Virus record (IMG/VR): IMGVR_UViG_2671180456_000014
Length of the DNA: 7,879 nucleotides
Origin: a virus
Lineage: Duplodnaviria > Heunggongvirae > Uroviricota > Caudoviricetes
Direction: 5' to 3' (one strand)
Under the pieces are notes generated by a model. The model saw only the letters and a program-made list of their open reading frames with translations, searched no databases and was not told the origin of the DNA. This document shows positions 642 through 7,879 of the stretch, one piece after another (positions within the stretch are counted from its first letter, which is position 1; each line of letters starts with the position of its first letter). Made by a program: the position numbers and the translations under genes.

Positions 642-768
642 GCTACGAAAGAAATCTGGATGTCTCAGGCGACGAAAGTCATCATAATTTTCCCCGCTCA
701 CCTGTCCGACAACCGCTGGTTGGATTCCACCAGCTTCCCGATGTTTTTTCTATATAAAGGCGAATGCA

Positions 769-881
769 GCCGTTTCCCGAAAAAATCCTGGCCGTTTCCC
801 GTCGGCTCATGAATGCGTTCCTCGCCGTTTCTGAAAATTTCCCTGCGGCAGCTGGTGGCTATAGAGAAAGGGCCGTTTCTG
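769..881. repeat. iteron-like direct repeats (GCCGTTTCY), 4 copies
   Basis: GCCGTTTCCC at 769-778 and 791-800, GCCGTTTCTG at 824-833 and 872-881 (last copy lies inside the gene A terminator hairpin). Same orientation and same core as the array at 4373-4501. Confidence 0.5.
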
Positions 882-886
882 GCCCT
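861..886 (-). terminator. Rho-independent terminator of gene A
   Basis: On minus strand: GGGCC-agaaac-GGCCC hairpin (870-885) followed by UUUCUCUAU; begins 8 nt after the gene A stop. Confidence 0.5.
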
Positions 887-1377: not shown

Positions 1378-1433
1378 GATTAATTCCTTATCGTAAATAA
1401 CAAATTGTTTTCTTGTTGGTGTTAATTATCGTT
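1378..1433 (-). promoter_or_regulatory. conserved cassette promoter and 5' leader (copy A)
   Basis: Sense strand: cGATAATtaacaccaacaagAAAACAATTTGTTatttacgatAAGGAattaatcATG. -10 GATAAT at 1425-1430; C/A-rich leader with palindromic core AACAAATTGTT (1399-1409); SD. Confidence 0.5.
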
Positions 1434-1552
1434 GTACGAATAAGGCGTCAAAGTGGAAAGTTGCGGTAGCCGGACGGGAACAGGTGGGTTTGTCGGTTGC
1501 CTGGAGGTAAGAGGTTGGTGTTTTTAGCCTGCGGGAAACAGGATGGTCATTT

Positions 1553-1576
1553 AAGGCCACCAGCATTGGTGGCCTT
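1553..1576 (-). terminator. stem-loop 5 nt after gene B stop (putative terminator or 3' stabiliser)
   Basis: AAGGCCACCA-gcat-TGGTGGCCTT 10-bp stem; no clean U-tract after it on the minus strand (uuaaaugacc). Contains the Chi octamer on the minus strand (CCACCAGC at 1557-1564). Confidence 0.4.
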
Positions 1577-1581
1577 ACTCT

Positions 1582-1863
1582 TTAGTGTAGCAGACCGATG
1601 TCGATGGTATCCCCTGAATCATCCACACGGATCATCAGCATGGCGAAGGCGTTTAGTGGATAGCTTGCGTGCCATTCAGGGAAGCGGTCATCTCGCATGA
1701 AGTCGGCAATGTCGTAAACGCAGCCCTCAAAGTGGAAGAATCGCGTGCTTACCTGCTCGTCATATTCCACATGATCCATTTCTTGCTGTTCTGTTTCCGG
1801 CAAGTCCAGCCATGATTCAAGGAATACATTTTGTGCTTTAGGGGTAATGGTGAAATCAGTCAT
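1582..1863 (-). CDS. small strongly acidic hypothetical protein, 93 aa (cassette gene B)
   Basis: Start chosen at ATG 1863-1861 (MTDFTITPK...) because GAGGA sits 7 nt upstream; the longer track ORF (to 1995) would run through the promoter motif. About 20 Asp/Glu versus 5 Lys/Arg by my count. Confidence 0.6.
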   Translation of the reverse strand: MTDFTITPKAQNVFLESWLDLPETEQQEMDHVEYDEQVSTRFFHFEGCVYDIADFMRDDRFPEWHASYPLNAFAMLMIRVDDSGDTIDIGLLH

Positions 1864-1917
1864 GAGCATATCCTCACTGCGTAAACATGTTGTTTTCTTG
1901 TTGGTGTAATTATCGCA
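1864..1917 (-). promoter_or_regulatory. conserved cassette promoter and 5' leader (copy B)
   Basis: Sense: TGcGATAATtacaccaacaagaaaacaACATGTTtacgcagtGAGGAtatgctcATG. Extended -10 (TG + GATAAT, 1909-1914 with TG at 1915-1916); palindromic AACATGTT core. Confidence 0.55.
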
Positions 1918-2010
1918 GTGTAGATAAGGCATAAAAGAAGTTAATACAGGCTGAATACACAAGAAAGGTTCTGGAAGTTGATAGCCAGGTTTCAAACTAA
2001 CCTTCGGTTA

Positions 2011-2047
2011 TTAAAAGTCATTTAAGACCACCAATGCTGGTGGCCTT
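2011..2047 (-). terminator. hairpin terminator after ORF C'
   Basis: AAGACCACCA-atgc-TGGTGGCCTT stem (2024-2047, one G-U pair in RNA), followed on the minus strand by AAAUGACUUUUAA. Same stem as 1553-1576 but with the 4-nt loop inverted. Contains Chi GCTGGTGG on the plus strand (2036-2043). Confidence 0.5.
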
Positions 2048-2052
2048 AATAA

Positions 2053-2196
2053 TTATCGCCCGATTACGCTAAGGATCTTTTCCTCAACTGATTTGTTGTT
2101 GCGACTAAACTGCCTTGCGTATCTGATGACAGAAGAGGCGTTTCGCTTTCTGACCATCTCGGCTCTCTCCTTCAGGCGTTTCTTGAAATCGCCCAT
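2053..2196 (-). CDS. small basic ORF, 47 aa (C'), translationally coupled to gene C
   Basis: MGDFKKRLKERAEMVRKRNASSVIRYARQFSRNNKSVEEKILSVIGR. ATG at 2196-2194 lies 2 nt after the TAA of gene C (TAAatATG); stop at 2053-2055, 5 nt before the conserved hairpin. Below the ORF-track length cutoff; called by hand. Confidence 0.3.
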   Translation of the reverse strand: MGDFKKRLKERAEMVRKRNASSVIRYARQFSRNNKSVEEKILSVIGR

Positions 2197-3526: not shown

Positions 3527-3573
3527 TACAACTCCGTAAACAACTTGTTTTCTCAATGGCGTAAATAATACCA
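3527..3573 (-). promoter_or_regulatory. conserved cassette promoter and 5' leader (copy E)
   Basis: Sense: TGgTATTATttacgccattgagAAAACAAGTTGTTTacGGAGttgtaaATG. Extended -10 (TG + TATTAT, 3565-3570); palindromic core 3538-3554. Confidence 0.5.
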
Positions 3574-3639
3574 GTAAGAAAACGGCTACAAAGCATATTG
3601 ATCAGGCGCATGAGCGATATGCAGGTTCTTCCCTGCGGC

Positions 3640-3670
3640 TATAGAGAAATTAAGCCAGCATTGCTGGCTT
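3640..3670 (-). terminator. hairpin terminator of gene F
   Basis: AAGCCAGC-att-GCTGGCTT stem (3652-3670) followed on the minus strand by AAUUUCUCUAUAG; same ctatagaga flank as the gene A terminator. Confidence 0.5.
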
Positions 3671-4056: not shown

Positions 4057-4372
4057 ATAACGCACAGGCGAAAAAGAGTTTTATTCCGGTGAATGTGGTT
4101 TTGGCAGTGAGTTTTCAGGTTCAGTACCGAGTACACTTTTTACATTATTCTGATTTAGTGGCCGAAGGTGGCTGGTGGGCAGAATAATCATCTCCCCGAA
4201 AACCTACTGAAATCGATTGTGACCCGTTGGCTGTCTGGCACAATTACGCTGTAGCTGGGCATTCAGAGGGAATCCAGCGGTAAGTAAGTTCGCCTGCACG
4301 TGAGCGCCTCTCTTCTTCCCGCACATTACAGGTGGGCAGCCGCAACTCTCCCTCACGCTATACCGGTACGCC

Positions 4373-4501
4373 GCCGTTCCTGAACCGGCATCGAGCCTTT
4401 TCCCGAAATCCACACAGGCAACTCGACCGTTTCCCTGAAAACCTCCAGCCGTTCCCCGAAGGCAACCCAGCCGTTTCTGTAGCGGGATGCAGCCTTTTCC
4501 C
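4373..4501. repeat. iteron-like array: 6 direct repeats at about 22-bp period
   Basis: Plus-strand GCCKTTYCC cores begin at 4373, 4395, 4426(7), 4448, 4470, 4492 (spacings 22, 31, 22, 22, 22). Minus-strand reading is GGRAAMGGC. Confidence 0.6.
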
Positions 4502-4559
4502 TGTATGGACCGAAGGCTGACCGTAGGGGTGTTACGGGGGATAAAATCAGGAGTTGAAT

Positions 4560-4590
4560 AAATACGAAAAAGGAGGCGACACCCCTCCTT
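4560..4590 (-). terminator. Rho-independent terminator, no ORF upstream
   Basis: Minus strand: AAGGAGG-ggugucg-CCUCCUU followed by UUUCGUAUUUAUU. Lies between the orphan promoter motif and the iteron array. Confidence 0.5.
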
Positions 4591-4623
4591 CCCTCCCCAC
4601 TTATACATACCTGTCTTGTTCGC

Positions 4624-4657
4624 TATACATGTTGTGTTTTCTTCGTGTTTTATCTGT
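4624..4657 (-). promoter_or_regulatory. orphan (ORF-less) copy of the cassette promoter and leader motif
   Basis: Sense: agATAAAAcacgaagaaaacacaACATGTatagcg aligns with cGATAATtaacaccaacaagaaaacaaTTTGTT; -10 is degenerate (GATAAA). No credible ORF before the terminator at 4560-4590. Confidence 0.35.
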
Positions 4658-4699
4658 TTCAACCTCTCTATAGGCGTTAATGCTCACTCCTTCCAGAAC

Positions 4700-5460
4700 G
4701 TTCTATACGGCGACTATTTCTGTTGGTGAATTGGGTGTGTTGTTTTCTCTGTCGGTGTATGTGGTTTCGTTAGTTTTGCGGTGGTTCTTCTATGGGGTGT
4801 TCTCGTCGTTTTGGTGATTGTTCTTCTCCGTGTATGGAGTAATGGCAGGTGGGCGATTGCTTTCGTTATTGTGTTTGAGTTGTTTGTCTGGAGTGTGTGA
4901 AAGGCTTTTGTAGTTATTCGTGTGTTGGGTAATGGCGTTTCCCGTGATTGTTATGTTTCGTGTCTTTTGGGATTGAGAGAAGCCTTGCGGTTACAGGCTT
5001 CGTTGGGGTTTCAGTGATTCTGGTGTTTCTTCGCTGTTTGGGGAATGGCGTATCGTGGGTATTGCGCGTATGAATGTTTTCGGATTGCCTGTGAAAGTTA
5101 GGTTGGTTGTCCGGTAGCCTGGGAAGAAGAGGTGGGTCTTTTCGGTAGCCTGCCATAAAGAGGTTGGTTGTTTTGGGTAATGGCATATGTGTTATTTAGT
5201 TGTTTTGTTATGCCTGAAAATAAGTTGTTTATATGGTTGTGTAACGCAACGGGAACGATTTTGAGCGTGTGTTTTTGTTGGTAGTGTGTTGGGTCGTCTG
5301 TGGTGAAAATTGGACGCTGTGGCGCTGTCTGCTGCGTAGAGTTACGGGTATAAGCAGTGATGTGTGAAAACGTCAATTTTTTAGACCAAATCGGGTGAAA
5401 GCGTTGATGTTTCGTTGATCTGTTATTCAGTTGTTTTCTTGATTGTATAAACAACTATAA
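4700..5460. repeat. strongly G/T-skewed non-coding region of degenerate intergenic-module repeats
   Basis: Plus strand is about 80% G+T in sampled stretches. Recurrent GGTAATGGC units near 4842, 4931, 5044, 5180; 5113-5185 aligns with the region upstream of promoter A (1464-1540); degenerate promoter-motif copies at 5274-5290 and 5431-5445. No credible ORF on either strand. Confidence 0.55.
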
Positions 5461-5518
5461 CTTATTGATATTTAAGGATGTGATTGCGGGTATGGAAGGG
5501 GAGTAGTGGCGATCAACG

Positions 5519-6644: not shown

Positions 6645-6722
6645 TTCAACCACTCCGAAACAATTTGTTTTCTTATGTGGCTTATTATCTCAATTAACAA
6701 AAGGCAGAAAACAAATTGTTTT
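6645..6722 (-). promoter_or_regulatory. conserved cassette promoter with two palindromic cores (copy G)
   Basis: Sense: AAAACAATTTGTTTTctgccttttgttaatTGaGATAATaagccacataagAAAACAAATTGTTTcGGAGtggttgaaATG. Extended -10 GATAAT at 6684-6689; palindromic cores at 6658-6671 and 6709-6722 flank it. Confidence 0.55.
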
Positions 6723-6805: not shown

Positions 6806-7879
6806 TTACTTAACCTGGTGGCCTGGTTTAGCACCAGCATCCGGGCTTAACAGGAAGATATCTTTCCCGCCGGGGCCAGCAGCCATCACCATGCCTTCGG
6901 AGATACCGAAGCGCATTTTACGCGGTGCCAGGTTAGCCACCATAATGGTGTGACGACCAATCAGTGCCTGTGGATCTGGATAAGCGGAACGGATGCCTGA
7001 GAAGACATTACGCTTTTCACCGCCGAGATCCAGCGTCAGGCGTAGCAGTTTGTCAGAACCTTCTACAAACTCTGCGTTTTCAATCAGCGCCACGCGCAGG
7101 TCAACTTTGGCGAAGTCGTNNNNNNNNNNNNNNNNNNNNNNNNNNNNNNNNNNNNNNNNNNNNNNNNNNNNNNNNNNNNNNNNNNNNNNNNNNNNNNNNN
7201 NNNNNNNNNNNNNNNNNNNGTCAGGCGTAGCAGTTTGTCAGAACCTTCTACAAACTCTGCGTTTTCAATCAGCGCCACGCGCAGGTCAACTTTGGCGAAG
7301 TCGTCAAAGGTGATAGTTTCCTGAATCGGGTCGTCAGCCAGTGGGCCAGTTACCGGTGCGGCTGTGGCTTTCACTTCTTCTTTGGATGCTTCCACCAGTG
7401 CTTCAACCTGCTTCATATCGATGCGGTTATACAGTGCCTTGAACGGATTCACTTTATGGCCCAGCAACGGTTGCTGGATGCCATCCCAGGTTAGTTCTGT
7501 ATTGAGGAATGCCTCTGCACGTTCAGTCAGTTTTGGCAGTACCGGTTTCAGGTACGTCATCAGCACGCGGAACAGATTAATGCCCATAGAGCAAATCGCC
7601 TGCAGATCGGCATCGCGTCCTTCCTGCTTCGCCACCACCCACGGAGCCTGTTCATCGACATAGCGGTTAGCCAGGTCAGCCAATGCCATGATTTCACGGA
7701 TAGCTTTACCAAATTCGCGGCTTTCCCATGCTTCGCCAATCACTTCAGCGGCATCAGTAAAGGTTTTGTACAGTTGCGGGTCAGCCAGTTCGCCTGCCAG
7801 CACGCCGTCAAAACGCTTGTTGATAAAGCCTGCATTACGAGAGGCCAGGTTAACCACTTTGTTCACGATATCGGCATTC
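6806..7879 (-). CDS. metG: methionyl-tRNA synthetase, 3' portion (runs off window; interrupted by assembly gap)
   Basis: Minus-strand translation gives ...[105 protein letters not shown], which I recognise as the enterobacterial MetG C-terminus (tRNA-binding domain). TAA stop at 6806-6808. The apparent frame change is fully explained by the 100-N gap plus 85-bp duplication (185 bp, not a multiple of 3). Confidence 0.9.
7035..7304. repeat. 85-bp exact duplication flanking the gap (7035-7119 = 7220-7304), assembly artefact
   Basis: Identical sequence gtcaggcgtagcagtttgtcagaacc...ggcgaagtcgt on both sides of the N run; collapsing one copy and the gap restores a continuous metG reading frame. 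Confidence 0.9.
7120..7219. other. scaffold gap (100 N)
   Basis: Run of exactly 100 n characters. Confidence 0.97.

Follow-up and report, generated by a model that had tools for sequence, protein, structure and literature searches.

Twin gene-end hairpins with inverted loops in an SSU5-like phage-plasmid: a putative portable RNA stem-loop at the joints of small-gene cassettes

The small accessory-gene cassettes that phages carry as 'morons' have a promoter module of their own for each small gene and a GC-rich stem-loop a few nucleotides (nt) past the stop codon, and they vary between related phages, with breakpoints at boundary elements. The locus described here shares these properties. It comprises twin hairpins at positions 1553-2047 of a 7,879-nt stretch of viral DNA (IMG/VR record IMGVR_UViG_2671180456_000014), hereafter called the window and meaning that stretch at its full length, which is the small-gene array of an SSU5-like phage-plasmid of ~108 kb (pLF82/Cyrano type). 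The LF82 study counts Cyrano genes of this array among the morons expressed in lysogeny. In contrast to moron terminators, hairpin 1 is devoid of a canonical U-tract, and several cassette ends share one and the same hairpin sequence. We propose that the hairpins may be a portable gene-end RNA stem-loop closing such cassettes, that the repeats containing them would be joints at which relatives gain or lose a cassette, and that their short loops flip in place; taken as a whole, this explanation appears probable to us.

Two further described phenomena are close to what is found here. Template-switch loop inversion, documented for RNA hairpins (Monttinen and Loytynoja 2022, PMC8794818), reverse-complements a whole loop while leaving the stem untouched, and prefers short loops (~4 nt) in perfect stems. 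The present hairpins behave alike; they differ in that the inversion is a standing polymorphism among 98%-identical phage-plasmids, at four gene-end hairpins, and in that one loop holds part of a Chi octamer, a potential functional side effect. As for Chi itself, phages that rely on the host RecBCD are Chi-rich, namely P1, with 50 sites in 94.8 kb, and the LLS-type lambdoid phages (Zheng et al. 2025, PMC12315714), with 20 of the 23 Chi sites of LLS in active orientation (PMC12315714). The element resembles these phages in having Chi as its top octamer, at a density at or above that of the host, and in apparently gaining and losing Chi with module shuffling. It differs from them in its lower density (1 per 3.9 kb vs 1 per 1.9 kb), in showing neither a strong orientation bias nor demonstrable clustering toward a known DNA end, in encoding its own RecA-like protein and exonucleases, and in carrying its non-coding Chi in gene-end hairpins and cassette spacers. 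The hairpins are real but mostly ordinary, and loop inversion and Chi-rich phages are both known phenomena; what is worth keeping is the recurrence of loop flips at cassette-end hairpins and the element-wide enrichment of Chi. The latter, already noted for P1 and LLS-type phages, has not been noted for SSU5-like elements in the searchable literature, where we found nothing linking Chi to them.

Palindromes that mark boundaries at the 3' end of promoter-independent or short cassettes are also known as the attC sites of integrons. The cassettes described here differ in having their own promoters, and the constraint on the hairpins points to RNA, not to folded single-stranded DNA. Identity with attC was rejected, as there is no integrase in or near the array and no attC architecture (imperfect R''-L''/L'-R' boxes with extrahelical bases). 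REP/BIME elements are likewise repeated extragenic palindromes at gene ends, able to stabilise the upstream mRNA. We take the hairpin sequence to be unrelated to the REP consensus, and this identity was also rejected, given that no chromosomal copy occurs in 5,426 E. coli genomes.

The two hairpins and the genes that they follow are:

1553-1576, minus strand: hairpin 1, AAGGCCACCA gcat TGGTGGCCTT, with a perfect stem of 10 base pairs (bp), 11 bp for 1552-1577
2024-2047, minus strand: hairpin 2, AAGACCACCA atgc TGGTGGCCTT, extending to 12 bp (2022-2049)
1582-1863, minus strand: gene B (93 amino acids, PHROG 1845), the cassette between the twin hairpins
2053-2196, minus strand: 47-codon open reading frame (ORF; CYRAN_109), ending 5 nt before hairpin 2

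An earlier sequence-only reading of this DNA had described the pair as identical stems with reverse-complemented loops. The inversion is exact and can be read directly from the sequence: the loop of hairpin 1 is gcat on the plus strand and AUGC in the sense RNA, and that of hairpin 2 is atgc on the plus strand and GCAU in the sense RNA. The stems, however, are not identical: on the plus strand, position 4 of the hairpin 2 stem is an A.C mismatch, and in the minus-strand RNA this becomes a G.U wobble. Each hairpin indeed starts 5 nt after a stop codon on the minus strand (TAA at 1582-1584 for gene B and TAA at 2053-2055 for the 47-codon ORF). A common sequence does follow each of them, but it is AAATGAC; the TAAATGAC given before takes in the last stem base.

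Folding of the sense RNA yielded -19.2 kcal/mol (z=-2.7) for hairpin 1 and -18.5 kcal/mol (z=-3.7) for hairpin 2. In the terminator scan hairpin 2 passes on the minus strand, with the tail ATGACTTTTA (AUGACUUUUA), a partial U-tract. Hairpin 1, with the tail AAAUGACCAUCC, lacks a U-tract in the sense direction, and the only strand on which it passes is the non-coding plus strand; its Buttiauxella orthologue has UCUUUUAC after the stem. Klebsiella, Yersinia, Kluyvera and Buttiauxella elements have orthologues of hairpin 1 with the same loop orientation. The twins belong to a set of ~60 GC-rich hairpins of the same general type, several with GGCCAC stems, spread across the element. Neither hairpin with its flanks was found at any chromosomal place among the 5,426 E. 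coli genomes, the matches being all on plasmids. In two stretches, 1490-1553 and 5108-5174, the pattern GGTAGCCTG-N8-AGAGGTGGGT-TTTT is repeated at intervals of ~30 nt; the former stretch adjoins hairpin 1, downstream on the sense strand.

Stem pairing was evaluated in an alignment of 15 distinct hairpin variants, drawn from elements of the E. coli type, the Kluyvera type and others, the Klebsiella orthologue being left out. On the sense strand 95.3% of the stem cells of these variants were paired. The pairs 1-24 (4 variants) and 4-21 (6 variants) vary to G.U only, while pair 8-17 passes from C-G through U.G to U-A, its last step being compensated, in L048, L058 and L063. Read on the opposite strand, the stem variants would be A.C mismatches. 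The lower stem of the Klebsiella orthologue shows a similar sense-strand wobble.

Transcript levels are available for LF82/Cyrano, with values of 5.7 for gene C, 57.9 for the 47-codon ORF and 6.7 for gene B in a table that may not be strand-specific (PMC9928086). RNA from CYRAN_109 is ~10-fold above that of the genes on both sides, and the level falls ~9-fold across hairpin 2, from 57.9 for CYRAN_109 to 6.7 for CYRAN_110 (PMC9928086). This ORF is annotated in the Cyrano (CYRAN_109) and PhiR41_1 records and not in RefSeq; it is intact in 32/32 related loci, and 11 of its 16 variable sites alter the amino acid, a substitution pattern that is not clearly coding. CYRAN_109 may encode a small protein or else yield a stable 3'-end RNA that hairpin 2 protects. 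Because of the fold stability, the sense-strand wobble and compensation, and the published drop in RNA, we regard the hairpins as a putative RNA-level gene-end element on the sense (minus) strand, a claim that we hold to be probable jointly with the rest of the explanation. The stem-loop would act as a terminator-like or 3'-end-protecting structure on minus-strand transcripts.

The hairpins are embedded in longer repeats and modules:

1546-1584: left junction module (GTCATTT, hairpin and 8 nt), direct-repeat family D11
2017-2055: right junction module, a direct repeat 79% identical to 1546-1584, at a spacing of 471 nt
1864-1960, minus strand: module with the promoter and 5' leader of gene B, in which 1884-1897 is the operator-like AACATGTTGTTTTC; repeat families D1/D3/D5
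1378-1460, minus strand: module with the promoter and 5' leader of gene A, in which 1399-1412 is the operator-like AACAAATTGTTTTC
869-886, minus strand: canonical terminator of gene A, GGGCC-loop-GGCCC and then a T-rich tail (-23.7 kcal/mol, z=-4.1)

A direct repeat of the hairpin and its GTCATTT flank surrounds gene B together with its promoter module, forming a unit of 471 bp. Many relatives are without precisely this unit and have one hairpin, bordered by the left flank of hairpin 1 and the right flank of hairpin 2. In ~47 E. coli RefSeq plasmids the left flank of hairpin 1 is joined to an atgc-loop hairpin without the right flank on the gene B side, which is consistent with the single-hairpin form. 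Other cassettes adjoin the same hairpin in L008 and L019, and in Yersinia, Kluyvera and Buttiauxella gene B comes directly after gene D, with gene C, the 47-codon ORF and hairpin 2 missing. Because relatives lack the exact unit and other cassettes abut the same hairpin, the comparison of these sequences identifies the twin repeats as apparent boundaries for cassette gain and loss. The hairpin and flank repeats, lying in the same orientation, would serve as the joint at which the gene B cassette enters or leaves, and recombination or slippage between them would be the simplest mechanism. Each cassette would be individually promoted: its promoter, which contains an operator-like AACAAnTTGTTTTC, would be followed by a short ORF and, 5 nt further on, by the stem-loop and then AAATGAC.

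In most small genes the operator-like near-palindrome AACAAnTTGTTTTC is placed after the -10 region and before the ribosome-binding site, and at some promoters a second, inverted copy is found upstream. Across the 108-kb element it has 12 copies (12 genes), a distribution which suggests that one regulator may serve a dispersed promoter set. Those in the window are:

1399-1412, 1884-1897, 2631-2644, 3539-3552, 6659-6672 and 6707-6720: copies of the operator-like AACAAnTTGTTTTC

It had been suggested that the difference between the loops could reflect recombination within the palindrome, and it proved to be a true inversion, since both orientations are found at identical flanks in relatives. Hairpin 1 carries gcat in 109-111 plasmids and is flipped to atgc in two of ~113 E. 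coli plasmids (pMTY12368_pLF82 and pN1131_1); the loop of hairpin 2 is atgc in 110 plasmids. At single-hairpin sites with identical flanks, gcag and ctgc loops are both found. Flips among close relatives are also seen nearby, at three more hairpins whose loops have 3-4 nt (cta/tag; atga/tcat and ttgt/acaa; att/aat), so that both orientations, whose recurrence had been proposed as a check, recur at four hairpins. One of them, related in sequence and without Chi, is:

3652-3670, minus strand: gene-end hairpin AAGCCAGC att GCTGGCTT, with the loop aat in the 98%-identical reference plasmid

No flips were seen among hairpins with 5-6-nt loops, and the terminator of gene A (6-nt loop) shows none in 19 relatives. 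Opposite loops are no rule, given that the two cassette-flanking hairpins of L019 have the same loop orientation. An assembly artefact was excluded as the source of the flips, because the 24-nt hairpin and its unique flanks fit in single reads and the states recur in many independent assemblies. The recurrence of the flips fits template-switch loop inversion: if the template is switched within a strand during replication, a single step may invert the 4-nt loop of a perfect palindrome, where the recurrence is observed and the mechanism is our interpretation. For the twins, conversion from the sister copy would be an alternative route. In pEC16-2 (L070), hairpin 2 has the usual loop, but its one mismatch is found on the opposite arm (AAGGCC...GGTCTT); either a perfect ancestor, as in L026, underwent a separate point mutation, or two nested inversions took place.

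The exact Chi octamer, 5'-GCTGGTGG-3', occurs five times in the window, as had been reported:

1557-1564, minus strand: Chi in hairpin 1, exact octamer
2036-2043, plus strand: Chi in hairpin 2, exact octamer
727-734, minus strand: Chi forming one half of the near-palindrome GCTGGTTGGATTCCACCAGC (715-734)
851-858, plus strand: Chi within 10 nt (850-859) that are inserted in comparison with the paralogous junction 3629-3650
4171-4178, plus strand: Chi in the 27-nt loop of the inverted repeat 4144-4152/4180-4188 (ATTATTCTG/CAGAATAAT)

Each twin does hold one Chi, on opposite strands, although these are not two independent observations: a loop flip moves Chi to the other strand because Chi is made of the upper stem CCACCA/TGGTGG and the GC in the adjoining loop. 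Every such copy would thereby hold one Chi, whose strand the flip shifts automatically. A fixed-stem pattern search seemed to indicate universal retention of Chi; it was discarded as circular, since the pattern required TGGTGG, and flank-anchored scans show frequent loss, with Chi missing and the stem kept or compensated in 13/37 and 9/28 copies; in one case Chi was lost by the compensated step from C-G to U-A. Because Chi is lost in about a third of the copies while the stem stays paired, the hairpin appears to be kept for RNA structure and not for Chi.

The remaining sites differ in their persistence. Chi 727 is conserved among E. coli-type relatives. Chi 851, ~10 nt downstream of the gene A terminator, is present in Klebsiella relatives and was lost three independent times in E. 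coli-type ones. Chi 4171 is kept despite very different left flanks and is lost in 2/3 Klebsiella relatives. The junction TTCCCTGCGGC/TATAGAGAAA lies downstream of two terminators (839-870 vs 3629-3650), and it is the 10-nt insertion AGCTGGTGGC that creates Chi 851; between genes B and A, a similar indel with Chi sets the spacer of Klebsiella apart from that of E. coli. The arms of ATTATTCTG/CAGAATAAT co-vary in relatives. Iteron-like words (GCCGTTTCCC, GCCGTTTCTG, AGCCTTTTCCC) form two clusters, 768-835 and 4368-4501, the first having Chi 727(-) on one side and Chi 851(+) on the other; these clusters are candidates for an origin, a partition site or a packaging site.

Five Chi are more than dinucleotide shuffles provide, which expect 0.14 and of which 0/200 reach five. 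The further claim that they are denser than the genome-wide frequency is weak. The E. coli genome has 1 Chi per 4.6 kb (PMC12315714) and the element, with 28 in 108,197 bp, 1 per 3.9 kb; these densities predict 1.7-2.0 Chi in the window against the five observed, and the scan is not significant. Compared with the rest of the element, the local density (5 Chi in 3,442 bp) has a scan P=0.19, and because this becomes P=0.66 when the twins are counted once, the window does not demonstrate an island-specific enrichment. Low-order Markov models expect 0.4-1.1 Chi in the array against five, an expectation that is not decisive because the same models under-predict the rest of the element ~3-fold. No orientation bias was found (in the window 2 Chi are on the minus strand and 3 on the plus strand, and the Klebsiella array has them at ~4 to 4), by which an oriented terminal Chi cluster of the LLS type was ruled out. 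A literature search on the DNA ends and packaging mode of SSU5-like virions gave nothing usable.

At the level of the whole element the enrichment is pronounced. Chi ranks first in frequency among the octamers of both NZ_CP061531.1 (28 copies) and MZ779062.1 (27 copies). Their coding DNA contains 23 Chi where 4.4+-2.2 are expected and 20 where 5.2+-2.1 are expected, i.e. 4-5-fold above synonymous-codon shuffles, of which 0/300 reach the observed number. Chi is also among the most recurrent octamers of the non-coding DNA of the array in E. coli and Klebsiella elements, and the Klebsiella relative pJN2-26, with the same array, has 7 Chi in 2.7 kb (scan P=0.0008). The idea that clustered Chi would help incoming DNA to survive thus holds in part: the enrichment is element-wide and a RecBCD-related benefit at that level is plausible, but it is not specific to the island. 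As with P1 and LLS-type phages, selection for a high load of Chi would act on the whole element. Owing to the element-wide enrichment and the frequent loss at single sites, we take the Chi of the hairpins to be part of a high-turnover load that extends over the element, each site being probably usable but individually not required.

Several observations weigh against the RNA stem-loop explanation. Hairpin 1, lacking a sense-strand U-tract, is not a canonical intrinsic terminator. Covariation is modest, with a single compensated pair and with 13 of 500 shuffles matching the observed pairing; the pEC16-2 stem mismatch lies on the arm that gives A.C in the sense RNA, and the strand-specificity of the published RNA table is uncertain (PMC9928086). 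All five non-coding Chi of the E. coli element fall within the array, which has ~1/5 of its non-coding DNA, and gene-end hairpins of Kluyvera, Buttiauxella and Klebsiella that are unrelated to the twins also hold GCCACCAGCA and hence Chi; an RNA function explains neither. The latter hairpins (L041/L042 ~1395-1425, L040 ~1315-1345, L033 6551-6575 and 3530-3560), some with proper T-tracts, either are related to the same portable terminator or were acquired independently.

The last two observations are what would be expected if the hairpins were primarily Chi carriers, that is, polarity-toggling palindromes selected to protect the stretch from RecBCD on either side or to target RecBCD-RecA recombination to the junctions. 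Under the established polarity rule of Chi, from which the active orientation at hairpins 1 and 2 is read, RecBCD arriving from either outside would meet an active Chi before gene B (hairpin 1 minus, hairpin 2 plus). The rank of Chi as top octamer, ~5-fold over synonymous shuffles, its recurrence in the non-coding DNA of the arrays of both E. coli and Klebsiella elements, the significant Klebsiella cluster, and the TGCTGGTGGC common to four distinct gene-end hairpins of different genera point in the same direction. We nevertheless consider this unlikely. About a third of the hairpin copies lost Chi through changes that keep or restore pairing, a Chi-null stem (CCATCA/TGATGG) exists in nature, and Chi 851 was lost three times independently. 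The orientation is mixed, whereas LLS has 20/23 Chi in active orientation; the flanking hairpins of L019 and of two E. coli plasmids are equally oriented; and only these two of the ~60 GC-rich hairpins in the element contain Chi. A wider proposal, that SSU5-like phage-plasmids are selected for many Chi placed in the gene-end palindromes and spacers of the gene-poor array, where loop inversion would switch polarity and the junctions would keep both polarities, biasing RecBCD-RecA-dependent rescue or exchange of cassettes between co-resident or incoming relatives, seems to us equally improbable.

The precision of the joints raises another alternative, in which the hairpins would be DNA-level sites for a dedicated site- or structure-specific recombinase (attC-like or cruciform) that inserts and excises cassettes. 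Homology between variants ends exactly at the hairpin and GTCATTT, cassettes are present or absent as precise units, different ones adjoin the same hairpin, and the element encodes a tyrosine recombinase. The gene for the latter, however, is ~50 kb away, with no integron integrase adjacent; the 24-nt near-perfect palindrome has neither the imperfect R/L boxes nor the extrahelical bases of attC, repeats of ~35 bp are enough for RecA- or slippage-mediated deletion, and the confinement of G.U to one strand indicates a constraint on RNA and not on DNA, making a dedicated recombinase very unlikely. The high RNA level of CYRAN_109, 10-fold above both neighbours, could instead mean that the main role of hairpin 2 is to terminate a small stable RNA (a 3'-derived small RNA or a small-protein mRNA, 2053-2196), hairpin 1 being a decayed duplicate with little function. 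The partial sense-strand U-tract at hairpin 2 and not at hairpin 1 agrees with this, as does the not clearly coding substitution pattern of the ORF, in which 11/16 variable sites alter the amino acid. Against such a role, there is no Rfam family match and no obvious promoter upstream of 2196, the ORF is intact in 32/32 loci, and the orthologue of hairpin 1 is conserved over five genera with wobble-only variation; we regard it as unlikely.

If the portable RNA stem-loop account is correct, reusable stem-loops would both end and mark the swap points of small cassettes in widespread clinical E. coli and Klebsiella phage-plasmids. In short perfect hairpins, loop flips are so frequent that elements with 98% identity are polymorphic for them; therefore, loop differences should not be scored as several point mutations in phylogenies or terminator comparisons. 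The Chi load sets SSU5-like phage-plasmids beside P1 and LLS-type phages as likely dependent on the host RecBCD, which bears on how these resistance-gene carriers establish and recombine.

The assignment of the window follows from its similarity, at full length (7.9 kb), to E. coli plasmids of ~105-115 kb (98% identity) and to Escherichia phage Cyrano (pLF82; 98.5%), with partial similarity to Klebsiella phage-plasmids and Salmonella phage SSU5. The best-matching plasmid, the reference element NZ_CP061531.1 (108,197 bp), encodes repA, capsid, portal, terminase, tail, DNA-metabolism and tRNA genes; the element also encodes its own RecA-like protein and exonucleases, and its tyrosine recombinase is ~50 kb from the array. 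All genes of the window are on the minus strand except one plus-strand ORF at 49-279. The products of the array belong to PHROG families without assigned function, Pfam finds only DUF5983, on one ORF, and an Rfam search of the window (E up to 1) gave no relevant match.

The window had been taken for an island of possible foreign origin within a core genome; it belongs instead to the phage-plasmid, and the metG that it contains is the element's own copy. The phage-plasmid has a full, host-like metG with a divergent apbC/mrp, as in the E. coli chromosome (6806-7879 in the window and, beyond it, 18790-22081 in the reference L001), and in 5,247 E. coli genomes this segment is all that matches the window, at 90-95% identity. 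A run of 100 N (7120-7219) lies within metG between identical 85-nt copies (7035-7119 and 7220-7304), which looks like a scaffolding or gap-closing artefact and not biology.

Finally, ~900 nt of non-coding DNA at 4600-5500 show an extreme strand asymmetry (GC skew up to +0.48 and AT skew down to -0.54) and would be C+A-rich on the sense strand. RefSeq calls no ORF there, and the Cyrano record has two in or beside it (window ~4204-4608 and ~5098-5454); the segment 4697-4867 is 80% identical to phage SSU5.

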